DNA from: Candidatus Omnitrophota bacterium
GTDB lineage: Bacteria; Omnitrophota; Gorgyraeia; Tantalellales; Tantalellaceae
Direction: 5' to 3'
Assembly: GCA_043811395.1 (NCBI GenBank)
Contig: JBDRNE010000115.1
Location: forward strand, 12,212-76,211
DNA: 64,000 nucleotides
The notes beneath the pieces are model-generated. The model saw only the letters and a list, made by a program, of their open reading frames with translations. It was not told the DNA's origin and did not search any database. The position numbers and the translations under genes were made by a program. This document shows, one piece after another, positions 5,665 to 63,449 of the stretch (position 1 is its first letter; every line of letters starts with the position of its first letter).

Positions 5665-7404
5665 ATGAATAACAAAGAGGTCGCTACAGTTTTTTTACGC
5701 ATAGCGGACGCGCTTGAAATCAAAGGCGAAAATGTTTTCAAAATACGCGCTTATCGGCGTGCCGCGCAAAATGTGGCAGATCTTTCACGTCAGGTAGAAG
5801 ATATTTATAAAGAAAACCCTTCAAAATTAAATGACATTCCAGGAATAGGCAAGGATCTTAAAGAAAAAATTGTGGAAATGATTCAAGTTTCACGTTTGAA
5901 GTATTACGATGATCTTATGAAAGAATTCCCGGAAGGATTTCTCGAACTACTTAACATCTCAGGATTGGGTCCCAAGAAACTTAAAAAACTTAAAGATGAG
6001 TTAGCTATCAATAACGTGGATGATTTGGAGAAAGCGTGCAAGAAAGGCGAGTTGTCGCGGATCGAAGGTATGGGAGAGAAAACCGGGCAGAAACTTTTGT
6101 CAGCTATACAATATTTTCGTGAAAAACAAGGAAGGTTTCTTTTGCCAGAAGCGGAAGACTTTGCGGATAGAATAGTTGAATATTTAAAGAAATCAGGTAA
6201 TTTTAAAAAGATTGAAATCGCTGGAAGCTTGCGCCGTGGCAGGGAGACGATAAAAGATGTGGATATCCTGGCCGTAGCCAAATCAGCGGAAAAAGCAATG
6301 GATTATTTTGTTAGTTTTCCGTCTGTAAAAAATGTAATAGCCAAAGGGCCGACAAAATCAAGCATTGTAATTAAAGAAGGCGCGCAAATAGATCTCAGGA
6401 TAGTGGATGAAGCTAGTTTTGGCGCGGCGTTAGTATATTTTACAGGATCAAAAGCACATAATATTAAAATACGAAAAATAGCGAAAGAGAAAAATTATAA
6501 AGTAAATGAGTATGGTGTGTTTGCCGTTAATTATTTAAAGAATAAAGAGACAAAAGTTGCCGGCAAAACCGAAGATGGAGTTTATCGTAAGTTAGGTATG
6601 GAGTGGTGCGCTCCAGAACTTCGTGAAGACCAAGGAGAAGTAGAGGCCGCGCTTGGGGGTGCGCTCCCGCGGAACCTTATACAATTAAAAGACATAAAAG
6701 GGGATTTGCATTCTCATACTACGGAAACAGATGGAAGCCGGACTATAAAGGAAATGGTATTAGCGGCTAAAAGAAAAGGATACCGTTATTTTGCCGTGAC
6801 GGATCATTCGAAAAACGTGCGGATTGCGAATGGGATGGACGAAAAGAGGTTGTTAAAACATATAGAAAATATAAAAAAAACAGCGCGGACAATAAAAGGG
6901 GTAAAAGTCTTAACGGGGGTGGAGGTCGATATTCTTGAAGATGGAAAACTTGATATAGAAGATTATGTCTTAAAAGAACTGGATATAGTGATTGCCGCGG
7001 TCCATTCAAAGTTCGGGTTAGATAAAGAGAAACAAACAAATCGTATACTTCGAGCAATGGATAATAAATATGTTAATATTCTTGCGCATCCATCGGGGCG
7101 ACTTATAACGACGCGGAAGCCGATACAGGCTGATTTTGATAAAATTTTTTTAAGAGCAGTGGAAAATAATATTTGTTTGGAAATAAATACGCATGGAGAA
7201 CGTATTGATTTAAATGATTTACATTGCCGCAGGGCAAAAGAATTTGGTGCTAAATTTGCAATTAACACCGACGCGCATGACGCGTTTGAGCTTGATGAAA
7301 TAAAATACGGAGTAGTGACAGCGCGTAGAGCTTGGCTTGAAAAAAAAGATGTGATAAATACGTATGCAGTTGATAAATTAACCAGAACACTTAAAAGAGG
7401 TTAG
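5665..7404 (+). CDS. polX: Family X DNA polymerase with C-terminal PHP phosphoesterase domain
   Basis: The N-terminus is PolX-like (VFKIRAYRRAA with helix-hairpin-helix). The PHP domain is present (DLHSHTTETDG...VTDHS). Confidence 0.9.
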   Translation: MNNKEVATVFLRIADALEIKGENVFKIRAYRRAAQNVADLSRQVEDIYKENPSKLNDIPGIGKDLKEKIVEMIQVSRLKYYDDLMKEFPEGFLELLNISGLGPKKLKKLKDELAINNVDDLEKACKKGELSRIEGMGEKTGQKLLSAIQYFREKQGRFLLPEAEDFADRIVEYLKKSGNFKKIEIAGSLRRGRETIKDVDILAVAKSAEKAMDYFVSFPSVKNVIAKGPTKSSIVIKEGAQIDLRIVDEASFGAALVYFTGSKAHNIKIRKIAKEKNYKVNEYGVFAVNYLKNKETKVAGKTEDGVYRKLGMEWCAPELREDQGEVEAALGGALPRNLIQLKDIKGDLHSHTTETDGSRTIKEMVLAAKRKGYRYFAVTDHSKNVRIANGMDEKRLLKHIENIKKTARTIKGVKVLTGVEVDILEDGKLDIEDYVLKELDIVIAAVHSKFGLDKEKQTNRILRAMDNKYVNILAHPSGRLITTRKPIQADFDKIFLRAVENNICLEINTHGERIDLNDLHCRRAKEFGAKFAINTDAHDAFELDEIKYGVVTARRAWLEKKDVINTYAVDKLTRTLKRG

Positions 7405-33417: not shown

Positions 33418-34794
33418 ATGAAATTGGTGGACACTCACTGCCATCTTAATTTTTCGGATTATGATAAAGATTTGCCGGAAGTATTGACCCGGGCCAAAAC
33501 CGCGGGCCTGGTCAGAATTATAGTTCCGGGGACGGATATAAAAAGCAGTATAAAGGCCGTTGAATTAGCTAAAAAGAATAAAATGATATTTGCCGCTGTG
33601 GGAGTACATCCTCATGAAGCTGATGATGCGGGCGTTTTAGACGTGGAAAAATTGAGGGATATTGCTGTTGGGAGTGACAAGGTAATCGCAATAGGCGAAA
33701 TTGGCTTAGACAAATATAAAAATTATTCAAAAATAGAGAATCAGCAAAAACTTTTTAGTGAGTGTTTACGTCTAGCGCGAACACTTGATCTGCCCGTTAT
33801 TATTCACAATAGACGAGCCGGGAAAGAAATGTTAGATATTTTAAAAAAATTTAAAAATACTGGAATAAAAGGTGTTTTTCATTGTTTTTCAGAGGACATA
33901 TCTTTTTTGAACGCAATACTTGAATTAGGTATGTATGTTTCTTTTGCGGGTAATATTACTTTTAAAAACGCTTTTGATTCGCGTAAGACGGCACAAGCCG
34001 TGCCTTTGGAGAAACTTCTTTTAGAAACGGATTCGCCTTTTATTACGCCGGAGCCTTACAGAGGCAAACGCAATGAACCGGCATATGTTAAAAACCTTTT
34101 AGATGTTTACGCAAAAATGTATAAATTGTCGGTAGAAGATGTAGCTAGGGTTACGACTCATAACGCGAATAAATTATTTAATCTTGGAATTAAAGAAAAA
34201 GGCGTGATAGCTTACGCTATACGGGATTCTTTGTATCTGAACATTACGAACAGGTGTACCAATAGATGTGGGTTTTGCACGAGGCAATATTCAAATTTTG
34301 TAAAGGGACATAAACTTTCTCTTGGTTCAGAGCCTTTGGCCGGAGAAATAATCCAAAAACTAAAAAAGGTTTCAAAATATAAGGAAATAGTATTTTGCGG
34401 TTTTGGAGAAGCTACTCTTAGGCTAAATACGGTTATAAAAATAGCGGCATACGTAAAAAGGCAAGGAGGTAAAGTTCGATTAACAACGAATGGACAGGGG
34501 AATCTCATTGCTGGATATAGTATAGCGCCAAAACTTAAGGGTATTGTTGACGCGGTGTCGGTAAGCCTGAATGAGGCAGAAGCGGATATGTATAGCCGGT
34601 TATGTTGTCCAAGTTTTGGCAAAAAAGCATATAGCGCGATAATGGACTTTATTAAAGAATGTGTCGAGCAGTCGATTAAAGTTGAAGTAACTTGTCTTGA
34701 TATGATAGGGGGTGAAGCTGTTTCCGCCTGTCGGAAGATGGCAAAAGATTTAGGGGCAGAATTTAGGATGAGGCATTTAGATGTAGTTGGTTAG
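33418..34794 (+). CDS. TatD-family metal-dependent hydrolase fused to a C-terminal radical SAM domain
   Basis: The N-terminal ~255 aa are TatD-like (VDTHCHLNF...HPHEAD...ETDSPF). The C-terminus carries CTNRCGFC (CxxxCxxC) with radical SAM core features. The RBS is GGAGGAAAT. Confidence 0.85.
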   Translation: MKLVDTHCHLNFSDYDKDLPEVLTRAKTAGLVRIIVPGTDIKSSIKAVELAKKNKMIFAAVGVHPHEADDAGVLDVEKLRDIAVGSDKVIAIGEIGLDKYKNYSKIENQQKLFSECLRLARTLDLPVIIHNRRAGKEMLDILKKFKNTGIKGVFHCFSEDISFLNAILELGMYVSFAGNITFKNAFDSRKTAQAVPLEKLLLETDSPFITPEPYRGKRNEPAYVKNLLDVYAKMYKLSVEDVARVTTHNANKLFNLGIKEKGVIAYAIRDSLYLNITNRCTNRCGFCTRQYSNFVKGHKLSLGSEPLAGEIIQKLKKVSKYKEIVFCGFGEATLRLNTVIKIAAYVKRQGGKVRLTTNGQGNLIAGYSIAPKLKGIVDAVSVSLNEAEADMYSRLCCPSFGKKAYSAIMDFIKECVEQSIKVEVTCLDMIGGEAVSACRKMAKDLGAEFRMRHLDVVG

Positions 34795-54697: not shown

Positions 54698-55972
54698 ATG
54701 AAATTTTTATATGATTTAGTTTTTATAATTTTCAGTATTTTATATGTGCCATATCTTGTGTTTAAGGGCAAAGCCCATAAAGGGTTTTCGGAAAAATTTG
54801 GATTTTTGCCGGAAAAAGTTACAAGATTGCGTAATCCCGTGTGGATACATTCTGTAAGTGTCGGTGAAGCGGTTTTGGGTGTTAAACTGTCCGCGTATTT
54901 AAAAAAATGTTTTCCAGATAGACCTATAATTGTTTCAACTACAACACGGACAGGCTATGATGTGGTTTCAAAAACGCAAAATGGTTTCGTGGACGCGGTA
55001 TTTTATTATCCCATGGATTTAAGTTTTATTACGGCTAAGGTTGTATCAAAGATAGAGCCGTTCGCCTATATTATGATTGAAACCGAGCTTTGGCCGAATA
55101 TGTTACGTGAATTACAGTCACGGAACATTCCGGTTATAATGGTGAACGGGAGGATATCTGATTCGTCGTTCAAAAATTATAAGCGCGTAAAATTTCTGAT
55201 GACACGTATTTTAAAATGCGTTAGCTGTTTTTGTATGCAGACAGAGCGGGATGCTGAAAAAATTGCACAATTGGGCGCGTCAAAAAACAAAATATTTGTT
55301 TCCGGAAATATGAAATTTGATGAAGGTCTTTGTTCTTCGGGGCAAAAAGGTATTAATCCGGAGTGTTTTGGATTTCATGATAAGGACAAAGTTATAGTCG
55401 CGGGGAGCACTCATTTTCCGGAAGAAATTGATATTATTGACGTTTATAAAGATTTAAAGGCGGAACGAAGTAATCTGCGGCTTATTATCGCGCCTCGTCA
55501 TGTGGAACGCACTTCGAAAATACAGAATGATATTGAAAAGGCAGGGTTAAACTGTCTCCGATTTTCTGAAATTTTGAAAAGCGGCGTTCATGACAATTTT
55601 TCAAATAAAATAATACTGGTGGATACGATAGGGCATTTGGCTGATATTTACAGTGTAGCGGATATTGTTTTTATAGGCGGTAGTTTGGTAAAAAAGGGCG
55701 GGCAGAATCCGATAGAACCTGCAAGGTGGGGGAAAATTGTTATTTTCGGGCCCAATATGTTTAATTTTCGAAAGATAACGGATACATTTTTAGAAAATAA
55801 CGCGGCTTGTAAAATAAGAAACAAGCAGGAACTTAAAATAAAGATAAAAGAATTTTTATCGAACACGCGAAAGAGTTGTGAAATGTCAAAAAATGCTTTA
55901 AAAGTTATTGAACAAAATTCAGGGGCAATTGAAAAAACAGTTGAAAAAATAAAAGGATATTTGACAAGATAA
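54698..55972 (+). CDS. waaA: 3-deoxy-D-manno-octulosonic acid (Kdo) transferase
   Basis: The GT30 N-terminal motif is PVWIHSVSVGE, and a C-terminal GT-B domain is present. Confidence 0.9.
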   Translation: MKFLYDLVFIIFSILYVPYLVFKGKAHKGFSEKFGFLPEKVTRLRNPVWIHSVSVGEAVLGVKLSAYLKKCFPDRPIIVSTTTRTGYDVVSKTQNGFVDAVFYYPMDLSFITAKVVSKIEPFAYIMIETELWPNMLRELQSRNIPVIMVNGRISDSSFKNYKRVKFLMTRILKCVSCFCMQTERDAEKIAQLGASKNKIFVSGNMKFDEGLCSSGQKGINPECFGFHDKDKVIVAGSTHFPEEIDIIDVYKDLKAERSNLRLIIAPRHVERTSKIQNDIEKAGLNCLRFSEILKSGVHDNFSNKIILVDTIGHLADIYSVADIVFIGGSLVKKGGQNPIEPARWGKIVIFGPNMFNFRKITDTFLENNAACKIRNKQELKIKIKEFLSNTRKSCEMSKNALKVIEQNSGAIEKTVEKIKGYLTR

Positions 55973-56028
55973 AGGTTTTGAACAATAAGGGGATAGGACT
56001 GTTGTTTAGATTATATATCTTAAAACTT

Positions 56029-57036
56029 ATGAAAGACGAAAACTCCGGTTTTTTTGATAATCTTATAAAAGGGGTTTTGCGAATTTTATCCTGGATTTAT
56101 TATGTAGCGATAAAATTTGTAGATAAATCTTATAGGCTGGGAATTAGGCGCGAGATTAAAATAAGCATTCCGGTTATAAGTGTAGGAAATATTACTTTAG
56201 GCGGAACAGGTAAAACTCCTTTGGCGATTTTTTTAGCAGAATATTATCAAGCAAGAGGTAAAAAACCCGCGATACTTATTCGCGGGTACGGCGGGGATGA
56301 GAACCGTTTGCTTGCGGATGAACTGGCAGATATTTCTATTTTTACGGGGCAGGATCGGGTTAAAAATGCCCGTATGGCTGTTGCTAGAAAAAATGATGTT
56401 ATTATTCTGGATGACGCCTTCCAGCATAGAAGAATAAGGCGTGATTACAATATTGTGGTACTCGATAGTGTTTCTCTGTTTGGAAATAAGGCTTTAGTGC
56501 CGAGAGGAATTTTAAGGGAACCGGTTTCTTCGCTTGGGAGGGCGTCCGCGTTTGTACTTACAAAGGCGGATATGATAGGCGAAACTCGGAAGAATGCTGT
56601 TACGGAAATGTTGAAATCTAGCTTTCCGGAGATTCCGATTGCTCTAACTTGTCATAGGCCTTTGTCTTTTAGCGATGTGACAGGCGCGTCATATCCGGTA
56701 GAGACTATTAAAGGTTGGCAAATAGCTGTTGTTAGCGGAATAGGTGATCCTGATTATTTAGCGTTTTTATTGGAGAGGCAAGGAGCTAATATTGTTTTAA
56801 GACGAGACTATATGGATCATTATCAGTACACTCAGAAAGATATTGATAGGATTTCTCGCGATGTTCTCACGAGAAAAGTCCAAAAAATAATTGTAACCGC
56901 GAAAGATTATGTGAAACTTAAAAATTTAAATTTATCAAATATCGAAGACAAAACATTTATTTTAAAAATAGGCATTGATTTTATCGCCGGGAAGGAGGGG
57001 TTAATTGCTGGACTTAATAGCGTCATTTCTGGTTAG
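56029..57036 (+). CDS. lpxK: Tetraacyldisaccharide 4'-kinase
   Basis: The P-loop is GNITLGGTGKTP. With the ATG at 56029, the N-terminal TM helix aligns with the SW motif position of E. coli LpxK. The track start at 55978 is TTG. Confidence 0.85.
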   Translation: MKDENSGFFDNLIKGVLRILSWIYYVAIKFVDKSYRLGIRREIKISIPVISVGNITLGGTGKTPLAIFLAEYYQARGKKPAILIRGYGGDENRLLADELADISIFTGQDRVKNARMAVARKNDVIILDDAFQHRRIRRDYNIVVLDSVSLFGNKALVPRGILREPVSSLGRASAFVLTKADMIGETRKNAVTEMLKSSFPEIPIALTCHRPLSFSDVTGASYPVETIKGWQIAVVSGIGDPDYLAFLLERQGANIVLRRDYMDHYQYTQKDIDRISRDVLTRKVQKIIVTAKDYVKLKNLNLSNIEDKTFILKIGIDFIAGKEGLIAGLNSVISG

Positions 57037-58939
57037 AGTGATTAATCTTGTCTTTTATGTTCTACCAATTGAGGTTAATTTAGCCATTGGCAGGAGTTTG
57101 GGCGGATGTATATATCTTTTAAGCGGGAAAAGAAGCGCGATTACGTATTCGAACCTTAAAGCGGCATATGCTTTGAGCAAATCTGCGGAGAATGAAAACA
57201 AAACCCCGCAGGAAATTAAGCGGATCACGAAAAGTGCATACAGGAACGTTGGGCAAACTTTTGCGGAACTTATTTCAATGACAAAGGTTTCCTCGGCGTA
57301 CATAAACAAATTTGTAAGTATCAAGAACTTTGAAAGAATACAGTCTGCCGCTAAAAATCCTAAAGGGATGATTTTGGTTTCCGCGCATTTTGGCAACTGG
57401 GAAATTAGTACCATAACGAGCGGGTTTAAGGGGTTCCCGATGTACATTTTAGCGCGGGACCAAAAAATGAAACGATTAAATGAACTTTTAAATGTACTGC
57501 GTGAATCTAAAGGAATTAAGGTTATACGAAAAGGTGCAAGCATTAAAAATATCTTTCGTGTGCTTCAAAATGGTAAAAATATTGGTTTGCTTGCTGATCA
57601 AAATGCCGGTCCGCAGGGGTTTCTGGATGATTTTTTCGGTCGGCCCGCTTCAACTGCCGTCGGCCCGTATCGGTTTGCGCAAAAAAGCGGAGCATGGATA
57701 TTGCCGGCGTTTATTCATCGGGTAAAAGGGCCATATCATGAGCTTGTGCTGGAAAAACCGATGGTTTTGGGCAAGGACGATGACATAGGGGTTTATCTGC
57801 ATGAATACAATAAACTTTTAGAAAAACATGTGAGGGCGCATCCCGAGCAGTGGTTATGGATGCATAAAAGATGGAAGATGACGCCGGTAAAATATGTTAT
57901 GGTTTTAGATGATGGAAAAAAAGGTCATTTAAAACAAAGTTTAGCGGTTGTAGGGCAGATGAAACAGTACCGGGAGAATGAAGGGTTTAGTCCGGAAAAC
58001 CTAAAAATGCAAATAGTGCCGGTAAAATTCAAAAGCAAGAAGAATAAAATTATTTTTAACCTAGCAAGTTTGTTTTTTTCTGCGCGGTGTCAAGGATGTT
58101 TAAAATGTTTAAAATGGGCGCTTAAAAAGGATAGTTATGAGTTGATTTCGTCAAAATACGCGGATATTATCGTGAGCTGTGGTTCGAGTTTGTCATCGGT
58201 TAACAGGCTTATGAAAATAGAGAATTATGCCCGCAATCTTACGGTACTGGATCCGGGGGTTTTGATTCGAAAAAAGTTTGATCTTATTGTGGTTCCTCGG
58301 CATGATGCCGGCGGGCGGAGTTTTGACGAAGATAAAACTATAGTAACAGAACTATCTCCTAATTTGGTGAAAGAATTACCTGGTATGGAGGTCAAGCAGA
58401 ACTGTATAGGGGTATTGTTCGGTGGTGATAACAAGTATTTTAGTTTGACCGAAGAGATGGCTCGCATTGCGGTAAAAGAGTTAAAGAAGGCATGTGAATC
58501 TATTGACGGGGAAACTTATATTACTACTTCACGAAGGACTGTGCCCCCGGTAGAGAAGATTTTAAAAAACGAGTTTGAAGCTTATTCAGGAAGTTATAGA
58601 TTTGTTTCCGGTTCAAACGATAAAGATCCGTTTACTGTAGAGAAAATTTTGGCACGAAGCAATGTGGTTGTTGTTTCAGGAGAAAGCATTTCAATGGTGT
58701 CGGAAGCTGTTGCTTCCGGCAGACAAGTATTAGTTTTTATGCCTAAAAAAAAGACGAAAGACATTACGAAGTATGAAAAGTTTGTTCAAAATCTCGAACA
58801 AAAAAAGTATCTTAAATGCGTTAATATTGAGGATATTGCCGCAAGAATCACAGAGACTGTAAAACAGGGGAAATTGAAGAAAAATATTGTGCCGGAAGAT
58901 AATAAAAGAATTTATGAGAAAATGTATAGATTGTTTTAG
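57005..58939 (+). CDS. lpxL: Fusion: lipid A biosynthesis lauroyl/myristoyl acyltransferase (LpxL/HtrB family) + C-terminal ELM1/DUF1022-like domain
   Basis: The N-terminal ~290 aa carry the HFGNWE acyltransferase motif and the LpxL C-terminal signature EQWLWMHKRWK. The C-terminal ~350 aa start at VMVLDDGKKGHLKQSLAV, which is typical of the ELM1 family. The TTG start follows AAGGAGG. Confidence 0.7.
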   Translation: MLDLIASFLVRVINLVFYVLPIEVNLAIGRSLGGCIYLLSGKRSAITYSNLKAAYALSKSAENENKTPQEIKRITKSAYRNVGQTFAELISMTKVSSAYINKFVSIKNFERIQSAAKNPKGMILVSAHFGNWEISTITSGFKGFPMYILARDQKMKRLNELLNVLRESKGIKVIRKGASIKNIFRVLQNGKNIGLLADQNAGPQGFLDDFFGRPASTAVGPYRFAQKSGAWILPAFIHRVKGPYHELVLEKPMVLGKDDDIGVYLHEYNKLLEKHVRAHPEQWLWMHKRWKMTPVKYVMVLDDGKKGHLKQSLAVVGQMKQYRENEGFSPENLKMQIVPVKFKSKKNKIIFNLASLFFSARCQGCLKCLKWALKKDSYELISSKYADIIVSCGSSLSSVNRLMKIENYARNLTVLDPGVLIRKKFDLIVVPRHDAGGRSFDEDKTIVTELSPNLVKELPGMEVKQNCIGVLFGGDNKYFSLTEEMARIAVKELKKACESIDGETYITTSRRTVPPVEKILKNEFEAYSGSYRFVSGSNDKDPFTVEKILARSNVVVVSGESISMVSEAVASGRQVLVFMPKKKTKDITKYEKFVQNLEQKKYLKCVNIEDIAARITETVKQGKLKKNIVPEDNKRIYEKMYRLF

Positions 58940-59074
58940 CCCGGGCAATTTCAACTTGTAGTTGAAGTCGAGGCGGGCATGTTGCACGTGGCAGGTAACA
59001 CGTATCTTTTTATCTCGAGAGTGGGAAGGAAAGCCGGGCACGCAATGTGTGGCCTGCGTAACTTAGTATAAAAT

Positions 59075-61174
59075 ATGAATATTTTACAATTGGTTCCAAA
59101 ACTAAATGTGGGTGGTGTGGAAAAAGGCACTGTTGAAGTCGCGCGTTATTTGGTTCTTAACGGGCATAAGGCCGTTGTGGTTTCCGGAGGCGGAAGTTTT
59201 GAAAAAAAACTTGCCGCTATCGGCGCGCGTCACTACGCGTTGCCGGTAGGGAAAAAGAATCCATTTATTATGATGTACAGTTACTTTAAGCTGAAACAGA
59301 TAATTCTAAAGGAAAACATCAATATTGTGCATGCGCGGAGCCGGATACCTGCTCTCATTGGATATTTTGCGGCCAGGAAAACTGGTAAAGTTTTTATAAC
59401 TACCGCTCATGGACAATATAAAAAACATCTCATAAGCAAAGTAATGGGATGGGGAAAAATAGTTGTTACTGCCAATGAAACAATGGCAAGATATATGAAG
59501 GATAATTTTAACGTTCCTCTTCGAAAAATTAGTATTGTGCCAAGAGGGGTTGATCTTGAAAAGTTTTCTTTCAAATTGCCAGCTCAAAAGGTCGGCAAAA
59601 CTTTGCGTATAGGAATGATTTGCCGGTTTACTCCGCTTAAAGGGCATTTAGATTTTTTAAAAGCCGCCTCATATGTTTTAAGAAAAATTCCTAATCTTGA
59701 AGTTATTATGATGGGAGACAAATCTTCCGCGAAAGAAGAATATATTAAGAAAATTGAGCTGTCCGTTAAACGGCTTATGATGGGAGGAGTCGTAAAATTT
59801 ATCGACAGCAGTCAAAGCGTTTCAGAAGTAATGAAAAGTTTAGATATTTTAGTTTCGGCAAACAGAGAACAGGAAGCTTTTGGACGTTCGATTATTGAAG
59901 CTCAAGCGTGTGGGGTTCCGGTAGTCGCGACGAAAGTAGGTGGTGTTATTGAAACTGTATTAAACGAACAAACAGGTTTGTTGTGCGAGGCCGGAAACCC
60001 GACAGATATGGCGGATAAAATACTCCAATACGCGCGGGATTTAAAACTTATGCAGACAGTAGCCTTAGCCGCACGGCAATATGTTGAGGATAATTATTCT
60101 TTGAGAAAAGCCATGGATTTGACGATGCAGGTTTATACGAAAGCGCTTAACGCTAAAAGTATACTTGTCCTTAAAATGAGCGCGCTGGGAGATGTTATTC
60201 TCGTGGTACCGTCACTACGGGCGATAAGAGAACGGTATCCAGGTGCATTGATAAAAGTGCTTGTTGACGCGCGTTTTCGTGACTGTTTGGCAAATTGTCC
60301 ATATGTAGATGGAGTTATTTCTTGTGATTTTCAAACGCGGGATAAAGGAACGGGGTTTTTAAGGTTAGCGGCGAAACTTCGTTCAGAGGATTTTGATATG
60401 TCAATAGATTTTCAGAATAATACTAAAAGCCATATGTTGTCGTTTTTAGCGGCTATTCCTGAAAGATATGGATATGATAACCGGAAGATGAGTTTTTTAA
60501 TTAACCGAAAAATCAGTTTACCAAAAAAGCCTCTGTCCCCAATTGAACATCAAGCATGTGTTTTAGGTCTTATGGGAATTACAAGGGTAGAACCTGTTCT
60601 TAAACTTTGGCCAGGAAAAGACGATGTGGCGTGGGCTCAGAAATTCCTGAAAGATAATTGGCTGAAAGAGCGTCAGAAAATTGTCGGGTTTGCTTTGTCC
60701 TCGAGCAGTAGGTGGGAAACAAAAAACTGGGGACTTTCTGCTATGGTAGAAGTTGCGGATATGTTGGCAAAAAATGAAAACATAAGAGTCGTTCTTTTAG
60801 GGCAGGATTCGGATAACAATCTTAAAGAACTTTTTCTAAAAAAAACAAGAGCTAAACCAATAGACGCGGTAGGAAAAACCAGTATTTTACAGCTTTTCGC
60901 GCTTATCGGAGAATGTGACGCGGTACTTACCGGAGACAGCGCTCCTATGCATATTGCTACTAGTATGGGGACGCCTTTTACAGCTATTTTTGGTCCGACA
61001 GATCCTATCCGGCATGTTGTACCAGGGGAATTTTGTAAAATTTTGTATAAAAAACAGACATGCGCGCCATGTTATAAAGGTGTATGTAAGCGGAATAAAA
61101 AATGTATGACAAGCATAAAAACGTCCGAAGTTTTTAGCGCTTTAATGGAAAATATAAGAGATGGAAAAGAGTAA
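59075..61174 (+). CDS. Fusion glycosyltransferase: N-terminal GT4 (GT-B, retaining) + C-terminal GT9 heptosyltransferase-like domain
   Basis: The N-terminus (NVGGVEKGT...EAFGRSIIEAQACGVPVVAT) is the GT4 EX7E region. The C-terminus (ILVLKMSALGDVILVVPSLRAI) is GT9 and carries the C-terminal G...GDS..MHIA motif. Confidence 0.75.
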   Translation: MNILQLVPKLNVGGVEKGTVEVARYLVLNGHKAVVVSGGGSFEKKLAAIGARHYALPVGKKNPFIMMYSYFKLKQIILKENINIVHARSRIPALIGYFAARKTGKVFITTAHGQYKKHLISKVMGWGKIVVTANETMARYMKDNFNVPLRKISIVPRGVDLEKFSFKLPAQKVGKTLRIGMICRFTPLKGHLDFLKAASYVLRKIPNLEVIMMGDKSSAKEEYIKKIELSVKRLMMGGVVKFIDSSQSVSEVMKSLDILVSANREQEAFGRSIIEAQACGVPVVATKVGGVIETVLNEQTGLLCEAGNPTDMADKILQYARDLKLMQTVALAARQYVEDNYSLRKAMDLTMQVYTKALNAKSILVLKMSALGDVILVVPSLRAIRERYPGALIKVLVDARFRDCLANCPYVDGVISCDFQTRDKGTGFLRLAAKLRSEDFDMSIDFQNNTKSHMLSFLAAIPERYGYDNRKMSFLINRKISLPKKPLSPIEHQACVLGLMGITRVEPVLKLWPGKDDVAWAQKFLKDNWLKERQKIVGFALSSSSRWETKNWGLSAMVEVADMLAKNENIRVVLLGQDSDNNLKELFLKKTRAKPIDAVGKTSILQLFALIGECDAVLTGDSAPMHIATSMGTPFTAIFGPTDPIRHVVPGEFCKILYKKQTCAPCYKGVCKRNKKCMTSIKTSEVFSALMENIRDGKE

Positions 61175-61204: not shown

Positions 61205-62308
61205 ATGAAAATACTATTGTTAACTACACACTTAAATATAGGCGGAGTAGGGTTTTATACGGTAAACTTGGCCAAATACCTAAAAAAAAGAAATGTTGAT
61301 GTTATTGTAGTTTCTTCCGGAGGGGATTTGGAAGAGATATTAGTTCGCGAACGTATACCTCATATAAAAATAGATATAAGGACTAAGTTTGAATTCAGCT
61401 TTAAGATTTTAAAAGTAGTACCTGTATTGTTCAATTTAGTAAAAAAAGAACATATTCAGGTAATACATGCTCAAACACGCGTAACGCAGGTCTTGGCATG
61501 GATTGTGTCAAGAATTACGCGGATTCCTTTTATTTCAACATGCCATGGTTTTTTTAAATCTCAAAGATTATCCCGTAAGCTTTTCCCGTGCTGGGGAGAG
61601 AAGATTATTGCTATAAGTGTCAGCGTTAAGGAACATCTTTTGGAAGATTTTTTTATTCCTAATAAGCGAGTGGAATTAATTCGTAACGGGATTGAAGTCA
61701 ATCGTTTCGTAAAAATCGCTTCTGAAACAAGAAGCAATCTTATAAAGAAGATGAATTGGTCTCGGGATGTGATAATAGTAGGTTCCGTTGGACGGCTTTC
61801 ACCGGTAAAAGGGTTTAATTATCTTATCTCAGCCTTCAAAAGGGCTAAAGCTGATAACGACAAGTTGAAATTACTTATTGTCGGAGAAGGTAAACAAGAA
61901 TCTGTTTTAAAACAGCAGGTTGAAAGTGCCGGGCTTTCTGGTGAGGTTTTGTTTGTTTCCGGCCGGGAGTCTTTGGAATACTATTTATCTGCAATGGATA
62001 TTTTTTGTCTATCGTCGGTAAGTGAAGGGTTAGGATTGTCTCTCATGGAGGCCATGGCGACAGGTATTGCCTGTATCGCTAGCAGTGTAGGTGGTCTCGT
62101 GGAACTTATTAATGATGGAGTAGATGGGCTTTTAGTTCCGGCAAAAAACGTTGAAAAATTAAGCGCTACGATAATTCGTCTGGCTGGAGATGATGTTTTT
62201 AGGACTTTGCTGAAAAAAAACGCGCAAAAAAAAGCTATTGAAAATTTTTCAATTGAAAAAAGCGTCGAGAAAACGATAAAAGTATATAGAGAAATGACAA
62301 AAGAATGA
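61205..62308 (+). CDS. Glycosyltransferase family 4
   Basis: It is paralogous to the N-terminal half of the preceding fusion (LLLTTHLNIGGVGFYTVNLAKYL...EGLGLSLMEAMATGIACIAS). Confidence 0.8.
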   Translation: MKILLLTTHLNIGGVGFYTVNLAKYLKKRNVDVIVVSSGGDLEEILVRERIPHIKIDIRTKFEFSFKILKVVPVLFNLVKKEHIQVIHAQTRVTQVLAWIVSRITRIPFISTCHGFFKSQRLSRKLFPCWGEKIIAISVSVKEHLLEDFFIPNKRVELIRNGIEVNRFVKIASETRSNLIKKMNWSRDVIIVGSVGRLSPVKGFNYLISAFKRAKADNDKLKLLIVGEGKQESVLKQQVESAGLSGEVLFVSGRESLEYYLSAMDIFCLSSVSEGLGLSLMEAMATGIACIASSVGGLVELINDGVDGLLVPAKNVEKLSATIIRLAGDDVFRTLLKKNAQKKAIENFSIEKSVEKTIKVYREMTKE

Positions 62309-62417: not shown

Positions 62418-63449
62418 ATGGAGAAACCTAAAAGAATACTTATTTTTGAATTAAATTGGCTGGGAGACATACTGTTTTCTTTTCCTTTTATTAAGGCTCT
62501 TAGAGGCGCTTTCCCGTCTGCTTATATAACTTGCGCGGTGGTGCCTCGGTACGCGGAACTTTTAAAAAACAATACTTGTGTGGATAAAATATACGAACTT
62601 TCAGATGGTAACGGCGTTTTATCTTTATTGGAAAAATTAAAATTTATCTTTTTTTTACGAAAAGAAAGATTTGATACTTGTTTTCTTCTTAAACCTTCAA
62701 GAAATAAATCATTTGTCGCGTTATGCGCGGGAATTAAGCGAAGAATAGGGTTCGGTGGTAAAAAATCTTTTCTTACGGAAGAAGTAAAGCTTCCCCTAAA
62801 AGAAATGCACAGAGTGTTTCAGATTTTGCTCATTGCAAAAAGTATTGGCATAGATGTTACAGATGATAAATATGAATATTGTGTAAATATAGAAGATTCA
62901 AAGTGTGTTAATGAGTTATTAAACGCGGATACATGCGATAACAATGCTTTAATTGCGATTAATCCCGGAGGGAACTGGCCAGCGAAAAGGTGGCCCGCTA
63001 AAAACTTTGTATTGCTTGCAAAAAAAATTTTAACTCAGTTTAGTAACGTAAAAATTGTTATAACAGGTGCTAAAAAAGATAAGTTACTTGCGGAAGATGT
63101 GGCGCGTGAAATAGGAAGTGAAAGGTGTTGTAACTTGGCAGGGTGCACAAAGTTGAATGAGTTAGCCTCGGTTTTTAGTAAATGTGCTCTTATGATAAGC
63201 TCTGATTCAGGCCCGTTACATTTAGCTTCCGCGGTCGGGACCGTTACAATAGGTATTTTTGGGCCGACATCACATAAAATCACCGGGCCGATGGGGGTTG
63301 GCAGGAGTATTGTAATTAGAGAAGATATTGATTGTAAAATTCCATGTTACGAAGAGCATTGTATGAAAGATTATATTTGCATGGAAAAAGTGACTGTAGA
63401 TAAGGTTTTTAACACGGTTTGTGATTTGTTTGGCCGGGGTGCTAAGTAG
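62418..63449 (+). CDS. Glycosyltransferase family 9 (ADP-heptose:LPS heptosyltransferase-like)
   Basis: The GT9 N-terminal motif is ILIFELNWLGDILFSFP, and the C-terminal motif is SGPLHLASAVGT. Confidence 0.8.
   Translation: MEKPKRILIFELNWLGDILFSFPFIKALRGAFPSAYITCAVVPRYAELLKNNTCVDKIYELSDGNGVLSLLEKLKFIFFLRKERFDTCFLLKPSRNKSFVALCAGIKRRIGFGGKKSFLTEEVKLPLKEMHRVFQILLIAKSIGIDVTDDKYEYCVNIEDSKCVNELLNADTCDNNALIAINPGGNWPAKRWPAKNFVLLAKKILTQFSNVKIVITGAKKDKLLAEDVAREIGSERCCNLAGCTKLNELASVFSKCALMISSDSGPLHLASAVGTVTIGIFGPTSHKITGPMGVGRSIVIREDIDCKIPCYEEHCMKDYICMEKVTVDKVFNTVCDLFGRGAK

Follow-up and report, generated by a model that had tools for sequence, protein, structure and literature searches.

The lpxL::ELM1 fusion described here is a real gene that is conserved across Omnitrophota. 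It joins a putative LpxL-type lipid A late acyltransferase to a domain of the ELM1/DUF1022 family that resembles KdoT of Acinetobacter baumannii. By analogy with that enzyme, its product is reasonably likely to be a membrane-anchored bifunctional protein, acting both as a late acyltransferase and as a transferase of a third Kdo (or of another inner-core residue). The fusion itself has gone unstudied so far; the kind of system to which it belongs is already known. Within the window, the stretch of 64,000 nucleotides that was analysed, the CDS lpxL::ELM1(KdoT-like) occupies 57005..58939 on the + strand, which is also the strand of every feature given below. It is called as a single ORF without interruption, which encodes 644 aa plus a stop codon and starts with TTG. 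Read directly from the sequence, a Shine-Dalgarno element, AAGGAGG (56992..56998), lies 6 nt 5′ of this start. Its first 32 nt are shared with the 3′ end of lpxK, which stops at 57036, and a similar overlap is present in relatives. On the other side, a promoter and terminator scan of the 135-nt gap 3′ of the fusion gene gave nothing above chance.

The N-terminal domain (residues 1–291; 57005..57877) matches the Pfam family PF03279 (Lip_A_acyltrans) at residues 7–291, covering profile positions 16–294 of 295 with an E-value of 5.9e-47 (160.7 bits, cutoff 22.3). It contains the HX4E catalytic motif HFGNWE (residues 128–133; 57386..57403), in which H128, W132 and E133 are invariant among 33 aligned homologs, and the motif EQWLWMHKRWK at residues 281–291. 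The initial annotation had called this half a Kdo2-lipid IVA acyltransferase on the strength of these two motifs, and the profile match bears it out. Foldseek gave the LpxM structures 5KN7 and 5KNK as best matches to this half (E ~1e-12), and PatA as well. The top Kyte–Doolittle 19-mer of the protein falls at residues 4–22 (mean 2.17; 57014..57070), with no comparable segment elsewhere in the 644 residues, and the AF2 model has a helix at residues 2–19; the segment is thus a predicted hydrophobic membrane anchor. This domain resembles LpxL/LpxM (PF03279; 5KN7) in matching the Pfam profile over its full length, in the HX4(D/E) dyad formed here by H128 and E133, and in its N-terminal anchor. Structurally, LpxM comes closest, and the fusion gene adjoins the waaA/lpxK region; in contrast to these enzymes, the fusion protein adds a C-terminal glycosyltransferase domain of 349 aa. 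All 17 NCBIfam equivalog models for LpxL, LpxM and LpxP scored under their cutoffs (best NF006270, 156.7 bits versus 248), so the domain supports no specific LpxL, LpxM or LpxP call. On sequence grounds, residues 1–291 are probably an LpxL-type, HX4E-dependent secondary (late) acyltransferase.

A linker of four residues, MTPV (residues 292–295; 57878..57889), leads into the C-terminal domain (residues 296–644; 57890..58936). This half had been proposed to resemble ELM1/DUF1022, and an HMM search agrees: PF06258 (Mito_fiss_Elm1) matches residues 307–607 with an E-value of 1.7e-37 (129.6 bits, cutoff 27), and it is the only Pfam family matched. The domain has a GT-B fold. No NCBIfam model covers it, and a sequence search of the domain against the PDB returned nothing below E 0.3. 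It has no sequence-family relation to WaaA (GT30) or to WaaZ-type extra Kdo transferases, and no match to PF04413; a canonical waaA lies two genes upstream.

Could the two halves have been joined artificially, by a frameshift, by mis-assembly or by read-through of two genes? One relative, L039, does carry them in separate ORFs. In L039, however, the break is an in-frame TGA that falls within the ELM1 domain, 17 residues past the junction, and not at the junction itself. The junction, ...HKRWK-MTPV-KYVMVLDDGKKGH..., is aligned without gaps and kept in 33 homologs of 44–76% identity, which excludes a frameshift or assembly artefact, and GC content shows no break across it. Indeed, homologs of ~640 aa share both Pfam domains, and the collinear fusion is found in at least 120 protein clusters (43–76% identity) drawn from NCBI, JGI, ENA and Logan. 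It is present in 117 of the best 150 representatives at 50% identity and in 73 of 80 GTDB species-representative genomes, almost all of them Omnitrophota, with relatives in at least 487 GTDB species genomes. The uncalled frameshift for which the initial annotation had allowed is therefore absent. The same arrangement recurs across independent genomes and over 100 protein clusters; this refutes the artefact reading, whose probability we consider close to nil.

To our knowledge, bacterial ELM1-like proteins were of unknown function until 2024–2025, and KdoT is the only characterised member. Our literature searches returned nothing specific on DUF1022, on mitochondrial fission ELM1 together with lipopolysaccharide, or on Omnitrophota lipid A. 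KdoT (A1S_2903/GtrOC1) is an ELM1-like protein of A. baumannii that acts as a CMP-Kdo:Kdo2-lipid IVA KdoIII transferase (VanOtterloo et al., mBio 2024; JBC 2025). Our comparison with it covers three short, primer-derived motif windows and common Pfam membership. The first KdoT fragment, MHIVYVSD8GKAGH13RSQALG, aligns in register with both the window domain and the family consensus. Its D8...H13 correspond to the DGKKGH loop after beta-1 (D303...H308; 57911..57928), and the equivalents of D8 and H13 are kept in 93 and 92, respectively, of 96 aligned family members. The second, AVIPEH109D110GIPA, is in register with PRHD (H433–D434; 58295..58306), where the histidine is found in 95 and the aspartate in all 96. 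The third, ILTTSR179R180TPAE, is in register with YITTSRRTVP; its S178-R179-R180-T181 correspond to SRRT (S509–T512; 58529..58540), in which S509, R510 and R511 occur in 96/96 members and T512 in 95/96. Two further searches gave nothing of use: a published ilvE primer, used as an exact pattern to find A. baumannii gtrOC1/kdoT in metagenome contigs, produced two chance matches, neither from Acinetobacter, and the concatenated KdoT peptide fragments used as a query produced no scoring match. KdoT and the window domain thus have in common PF06258, the GT-B fold, the register of the SDGKxGH loop, and the PxHD and TTSRRTP motifs. Neither has a transmembrane segment of its own, the genes of both lie among those for the LPS inner core, and each has a GT4 enzyme that follows it or acts as its partner. 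They differ in that the window domain is placed covalently behind an LpxL module (LpxK in some relatives), exceeds KdoT (about 35 kDa) by ~50 residues, and belongs to an operon with several GT9 heptosyltransferase-like genes; A. baumannii, by contrast, lacks heptose.

In the C-terminal Rossmann subdomain, the loop/helix GESISMVSEA (58679..58708) follows strand 554–558 of the AF2 model, and its S561, S563, M564, S566 and E567 are invariant in the 33-homolog alignment. By analogy with other GT-B enzymes, it is presumed to bind the nucleotide. SRRT and GESxSMxSE are among ~25 invariant residues at canonical GT-B cleft positions. This conservation bears on whether the ELM1 half is an enzyme at all, since it might instead be a scaffold or regulatory module that organises lipid A enzymes or senses nucleotide-sugar pools. 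Plant ELM1, the namesake of PF06258, serves in mitochondrial fission as the adaptor of a dynamin-related protein, DRP3A, and is not known to be an enzyme; attachment to either LpxL or LpxK would suit a generic tethered module; and in KdoT the single substitutions D8A, H13A, H109A and D110A were without effect (PMC12856342). However, KdoT activity requires a positive charge at R180, within the SRRT motif that is modelled as contacting the Kdo carboxylate (PMC12856342), and purified KdoT suffices for catalysis in vitro. In contrast to plant ELM1, bacterial members of the family occur in an LPS context and retain the cleft residues. We therefore regard a non-catalytic role as quite unlikely. It is also very improbable that the domain is not a transferase but supplies a precursor, either in the manner of a nucleotide-sugar 2-epimerase or by hydrolysis. 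Older annotations did call family members NDP-sugar epimerases, but Kenyon et al. judged that annotation incorrect, the C-terminal domain has no Pfam Epimerase_2 match and just 12–13% identity to epimerases, and KdoT is a proven transferase.

The genomic setting places the fusion gene among genes of lipid A and inner-core assembly. The operon begins with waaA (Kdo transferase, GT30; 54698..55972; PF04413 E 1e-56, NCBIfam NF004388 E 1.6e-99), followed by lpxK (tetraacyldisaccharide 4′-kinase; 55978..57036; PF02606 E 1e-70, TIGR00682 above cutoff). Downstream of the fusion gene lie a GT4::GT9 fusion gene encoding 699 aa (59075..61174; GT4 at residues 12–334 and GT9 at 429–674 by Pfam) and two further conserved operon members, a GT4 glycosyltransferase (61205..62308) and a GT9 of the heptosyltransferase family (62418..63449). 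The order waaA-lpxK-lpxL::ELM1-GT4::GT9-GT4-GT9 is shared among relatives and accompanies the fusion in the 73 of 80 species-representative genomes; at 72 of 75 related loci the reading frame that comes next encodes a GT4 domain, in many cases overlapping by 4 nt. The heptosyltransferase-II-like part of the GT4::GT9 protein scores 134.8 against a TIGR02195 cutoff of 134.6. The N-terminus of the GT4::GT9 protein, MNILQLVPKLNV, resembles that of GnaT, MKVMQLLPELNS, which makes it a candidate GnaT-like partner; GnaT (LpsB) is a GT4 UDP-GlcNAcA transferase that works after KdoT. The two also share an E-x7-E motif (EAFGRSIIE versus ETFGRTALE in GnaT) that is generic to GT4 enzymes. In contrast to GnaT, the window GT4 domain is itself fused to GT9, and the likeness lies in the N-terminus and the motif. 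No physical KdoT–GnaT complex was seen (PMC12856342), and gene adjacency is therefore no proof of a GT4 partnership.

Relatives also show how the two halves can be arranged otherwise. In five genomes LpxK::ELM1 takes the same operon slot; these alternative fusions form a single nested clade. WaaA::LpxK fusions also occur in the Omnitrophota lineage. Outside Omnitrophota, ELM1 is a separate gene within lipid A clusters (for example, lpxL-lpxA-lpxB-ELM1 and kdsB-waaA-lpxL), and kdsB is found in the same cluster in relatives. The initial annotation had asked whether relatives encode the halves separately; at four loci (L063, L089, L090 and L091) they do, as neighbouring genes of a lipid A cluster. 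A role for ELM1 as a replacement of LpxB was considered and rejected, because in both L063 and L089 a canonical lpxB precedes the standalone ELM1.

These features are consistent with a bifunctional inner-membrane enzyme that would work at the cytoplasmic face during lipid A–inner core assembly, with the N-terminal helix serving as its membrane anchor and residues 296–644 as a soluble GT-B glycosyltransferase. The acceptor of E. coli LpxL is Kdo2-lipid IVA, and the same is assumed for the LpxL half of the fusion; this acceptor would be made by the WaaA of the same operon. The glycosyltransferase half would most likely transfer KdoIII from CMP-Kdo onto Kdo2-lipid IVA, as A. baumannii KdoT does, an enzyme shown in 2025 to prefer the tetra-acylated acceptor. 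Both halves probably share Kdo2-lipid IVA as the intermediate on which they work. The earlier proposal that an ELM1 activity acts on the lipid A–Kdo intermediate gains backing, by analogy, from this KdoT biochemistry. For the fusion protein itself, we infer that both reactions belong to the same step, and likewise which sugar is transferred, with CMP-Kdo as its donor, which hydroxyl accepts it and which reaction comes first, as well as any channelling and a partnership with the GT4 enzyme. If the acceptor is shared, the fusion tethers an anchorless transferase beside an acyltransferase that uses the same acceptor. In effect, it would co-localise the two reactions that consume a branch-point intermediate, at a fixed ratio of 1:1. 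The GT4 domain of GT4::GT9 would then add a cap to this residue, in the way that GnaT follows KdoT, and the heptosyltransferase-like GT9 enzymes would extend the core.

A bifunctional LpxL–glycosyltransferase could also use another donor (a UDP- or GDP-sugar) or another acceptor, adding a hexose, a uronic acid or some other residue to Kdo/lipid A. The A. baumannii OC loci contain other Mito_fiss_Elm1 glycosyltransferases (GtrOC14, GtrOC19 and GtrOC22), and several family members besides GtrOC1/KdoT are predicted to act in the outer core. The ELM1 family is thus functionally heterogeneous by prediction, and the donor need not be CMP-Kdo. KdoT attaches KdoIII at O5 of KdoI. In heptose-containing cores this O5 is the usual HepI site, and the products of the several GT9 heptosyltransferase-like genes in the operon may occupy it; the linkage in Omnitrophota may therefore differ from that made by KdoT. 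The extra length of the window domain points the same way. However, the signature residues of KdoT are conserved in register, including the SRRT motif with its modelled contact to the Kdo carboxylate, and the gene sits tightly between waaA/lpxK and the GT4 gene, with kdsB in the cluster in relatives. We consider a different donor or acceptor possible, if rather unlikely, and we favor extension by a third Kdo.

The fusion may be relevant for several aspects of LPS assembly. First, we know of a split Kdo pathway, in which WaaA adds KdoI and KdoII and a separate KdoT-type enzyme adds KdoIII, only in Acinetobacter and Rickettsia; the work on KdoT reportedly did away with the idea that every inner-core Kdo is added by WaaA. 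We suggest, tentatively and with somewhat less than even confidence, that this split pathway is phylum-wide and hard-wired in Omnitrophota, with the KdoT module coupled covalently to a late acyltransferase or to LpxK acting on the same lipid intermediate. This would extend the pathway to a distant, uncultured phylum. Second, the conserved fusion to LpxL (or LpxK), together with the downstream GT4 gene, provides independent Rosetta-stone evidence, which supports KdoT-type enzymes working at the Kdo2-lipid IVA stage beside the late acyltransferase. Third, if this scheme is correct, the WaaA::LpxK and GT4::GT9 fusions would also reflect a lineage that is compressing lipid A–inner core synthesis into a small number of multi-domain polypeptides, which may channel substrates. 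Such a natural assembly line would show in which order these steps run in vivo and how they are coupled, something that is difficult to dissect by genetics in A. baumannii. The fusion would also offer a self-anchoring, single-polypeptide construct for biochemical or structural studies of the coordination between acylation and the extension by Kdo. Finally, from this arrangement one would expect the inner core of Omnitrophota LPS to be unusual.

The lpxL::ELM1 gene (57005..58939, + strand) is an uninterrupted ORF of 644 aa that starts at TTG, has an AAGGAGG Shine-Dalgarno sequence 6 nt 5′ of that codon, and shares 32 nt with the end of the upstream lpxK, an overlap similar in relatives. The initial annotation's call of an LpxL-type acyltransferase fused to an ELM1/DUF1022-like domain is confirmed. 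PF03279 (Lip_A_acyltrans; residues 7–291, E 5.9e-47) and PF06258 (Mito_fiss_Elm1; residues 307–607, E 1.7e-37), both far over the Pfam gathering threshold, match one ORF in which the two quoted motifs, HFGNWE (residues 128–133) and EQWLWMHKRWK (residues 281–291), can be read. The N-half matches only LpxL-type NCBIfam models, every one under its equivalog cutoff, and no NCBIfam model matches the C-half. AF2 models the full-length protein with confidence (pLDDT 88.5, pTM 0.85) and the C-domain alone even better (pLDDT 94, pTM 0.90). In Foldseek, the N-half hits A. baumannii LpxM (5KN7/5KNK, E ~1e-12) as well as PatA. The sole strongly hydrophobic segment by hydropathy (residues 4–22) is consistent with the anchor that LpxL/LpxM typically carry at the N-terminus. 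The product is a membrane-anchored two-domain enzyme, its halves belonging to the LpxL and ELM1/KdoT families and each keeping the residues that activity would require. Inside the N-subdomain of the ELM1 half lies a Cys-rich segment, CQGCLKCL (58088–58111, residues 362–369), which might bind a metal or help associate the protein with the membrane; many relatives have C-x2-C-x2-C-like patterns at this position, and others have hydrophobic residues instead.

Among 5.8 billion proteins searched, at least 120 clusters combine the two Pfam domains in ~640 aa, with identities of 43–76%. Their named members are Omnitrophota, labeled either "ELM1/GtrOC1 family putative glycosyltransferase" or "KDO2-lipid IV(A) lauroyltransferase." Thirty-three of these sequences align collinearly over both halves, with invariant residues in each, and no gaps break the conserved junction (HKRWK-x-TP-x-K-x-[VIL]-x-[VIL]-L-D-D-G-K-K-G-H), so that the linker is just four residues, MTPV. 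The N-half is the more conserved (mean identity 60.5% vs. 47.9% for the C-half), the identities of the two halves co-vary (r = 0.75), and GC content shows no break at the junction. With the C-domain as query, exhaustive HMMER searching gave 1554 representatives at E ≤ 1e-3; among the best 150, 117 also have an LpxL-like N-domain, a count that takes in contig-truncated copies. When GTDB was scanned with each species represented by one genome, 487 genomes proved to hold relatives, and among the best 80, for which architecture classes were assigned, 73 carry lpxL::ELM1 and five carry an lpxK::ELM1 fusion. In one more (L039), lpxL::ELM1 is broken at ~6050–6055 by an in-frame TGA that takes the place of a conserved Leu codon, 17 residues inside ELM1 (...GHLKQS*AVV...). 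This TGA may reflect a nonsense mutation, recoding, or an error in sequencing. In the last (L063, a MAG titled Oryzomonas, GC ~53%), ELM1 is a separate gene. The 73 genomes, the clusters, and the gap-free junction rule out an uncalled frameshift joining two genes; the lpxL::ELM1 fusion is genuine and phylum-wide, uniting two enzyme families already known. Many contigs recorded as "uncultured Planctomycetia bacterium" (binchicken TPA; L010, L016, L017, L021, and others) hold the exact Omnitrophota-type operon and fusion, and the taxonomy on these records is probably too coarse or mistaken.

Across relatives, the operon changes remarkably little. Its order, (dprA-)topA-xerC-waaA-lpxK-lpxL::ELM1-GT4::GT9-GT4-GT9-GT9(-GT9-PfkB-kdsB-like), recurs even in a relative with 29% C-domain identity and sets the fusion gene between waaA/lpxK and inner-core glycosyltransferase genes. 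Genomes with lpxK::ELM1 keep the ELM1 module in this slot and lack only the lpxL module. In a rough NJ tree, the LpxK-fused ELM1 domains form one clade nested inside the LpxL-fused ones, which points to one derived rearrangement. Such fusions, of ~700–745 aa, were seen in L060, L061, L067, L073, L076, L003 (P0218), and P0139. One Omnitrophota genome (L029, 2742–5168) also joins waaA and lpxK in a single 808-aa ORF (PF04413 and PF02606) directly 5′ of lpxL::ELM1, so that three polypeptides there hold six catalytic domains. Elsewhere in the window, a 458-aa ORF (33418–34794) has an unusual pairing of a full TatD-type DNase/hydrolase domain (residues 4–255) with radical SAM (residues 274–433). 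Some relatives encode the two halves separately, with standalone ELM1 genes located in lipid A/Kdo clusters: lpxL-lpxA-lpxB-ELM1 (L063 and L089), lpxL-metallophosphatase-ELM1-GT4-like-GT9 (L090), and kdsB-waaA-lpxL-DUF374 divergent from ELM1-GT4-msbA (L091). A more distant standalone paralog in an Omnitrophota MAG (L001 8001–9074, P0210) is translationally coupled to an adjacent MsbA-like ABC transporter gene and adjoins methyltransferase and O-antigen genes (Wzy_C, Wzm/Wzt), a context that may reflect a second role for the ELM1 family.

A precedent for the ELM1 half is KdoT of A. baumannii. Its gene, GtrOC1, is the first in all outer-core loci of that species and encodes a Mito_fiss_Elm1 member predicted to be a glycosyltransferase (Kenyon et al., PMC4172580). 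Deletion of A1S_2903 (GtrOC1) or lpsB leaves Kdo2-lipid A, and the two jointly add KdoIII and GlcNAcA, also in E. coli (VanOtterloo et al. 2024, PMC10936431). The purified A1S_2903 protein, renamed KdoT, acts as a CMP-Kdo:Kdo2-lipid IVA KdoIII transferase, prefers tetra-acylated over hexa-acylated acceptor, is membrane-associated without a TM helix, and has an invariant SRRT motif with positive charge required at R180; LpsB (GnaT, GT4) then adds GlcNAcA, and homologs of KdoT were given for Acinetobacter and Rickettsia only (VanOtterloo, Voss and Trent 2025, PMC12856342). Our comparison used three KdoT fragments translated from the published cloning and mutagenesis primers (PMC12856342): MHIVYVSD8GKAGH13RSQALG, AVIPEH109D110GIPA, and ILTTSR179R180TPAE. 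Their counterparts in the C-domain, numbered from K296 = 1, are KYVMVLDD8GKKGH13LKQSLA, LIVVPRH138D139AG, and YITTS214R215R216T217VP. D8 and H13 fall in identical register, and thus free-standing KdoT begins just where the fusion junction lies. All 96 family members compared have SRR, and 95 have the following T; the HD motif has H in 95 and D in 96, and D8 and H13 occur in 93 and 92, respectively; the exact KdoT heptamers SDGKAGH and TTSRRTP are present in many relatives.

The next gene, GT4::GT9 (59075–61174), joins a GT4 domain (residues ~12–350) to a GT9 heptosyltransferase-II-like domain (residues ~360–690). In 72 of the 75 related loci with enough downstream sequence, the ORF 3′ of the fusion opens with a GT4 domain, often overlapping the fusion gene by 4 nt, and the GT4::GT9 fusion itself is conserved there (72/75). 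In the window, a 135-nt gap (58940–59074) stands where many relatives have the 4-nt overlap, and its weak hairpin and T-run (58986–59003) are not above chance expectation. The GT4::GT9 N-terminus, MNILQLVPKLNV vs. MKVMQLLPELNS in GnaT, and an EX7E motif give a likeness to GnaT that is suggestive only.

The KdoT precedent supports the initial annotation's interpretation that the ELM1 activity acts on the lipid A–Kdo intermediate. The C-domain would add an extra Kdo or a different inner-core residue to Kdo2-lipid IVA. E. coli LpxL uses this same acceptor, and we assume from it that the LpxL half would as well. The fusion would tether an otherwise anchorless transferase at the site of synthesis of its lipid acceptor and set a 1:1 stoichiometry of the two activities; the LpxK fusion may tether it likewise, LpxK being membrane-anchored as well. 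The GT4 domain of the next gene could then cap the product in the manner of GnaT. This Kdo reading is least certain in the donor and linkage specificity of the ELM1 half, which may differ from KdoT in either: A. baumannii outer-core loci hold other predicted ELM1-family glycosyltransferases, and the operon's heptosyltransferase-like genes may be competitors for Kdo O5, which KdoT uses.

The lpxL::ELM1 architecture is visible and automatically annotated in public databases, and our literature search found no paper describing the fusion. Its existence lends independent support to the KdoT step, itself a recent proposal, and brings another phylum into its range.
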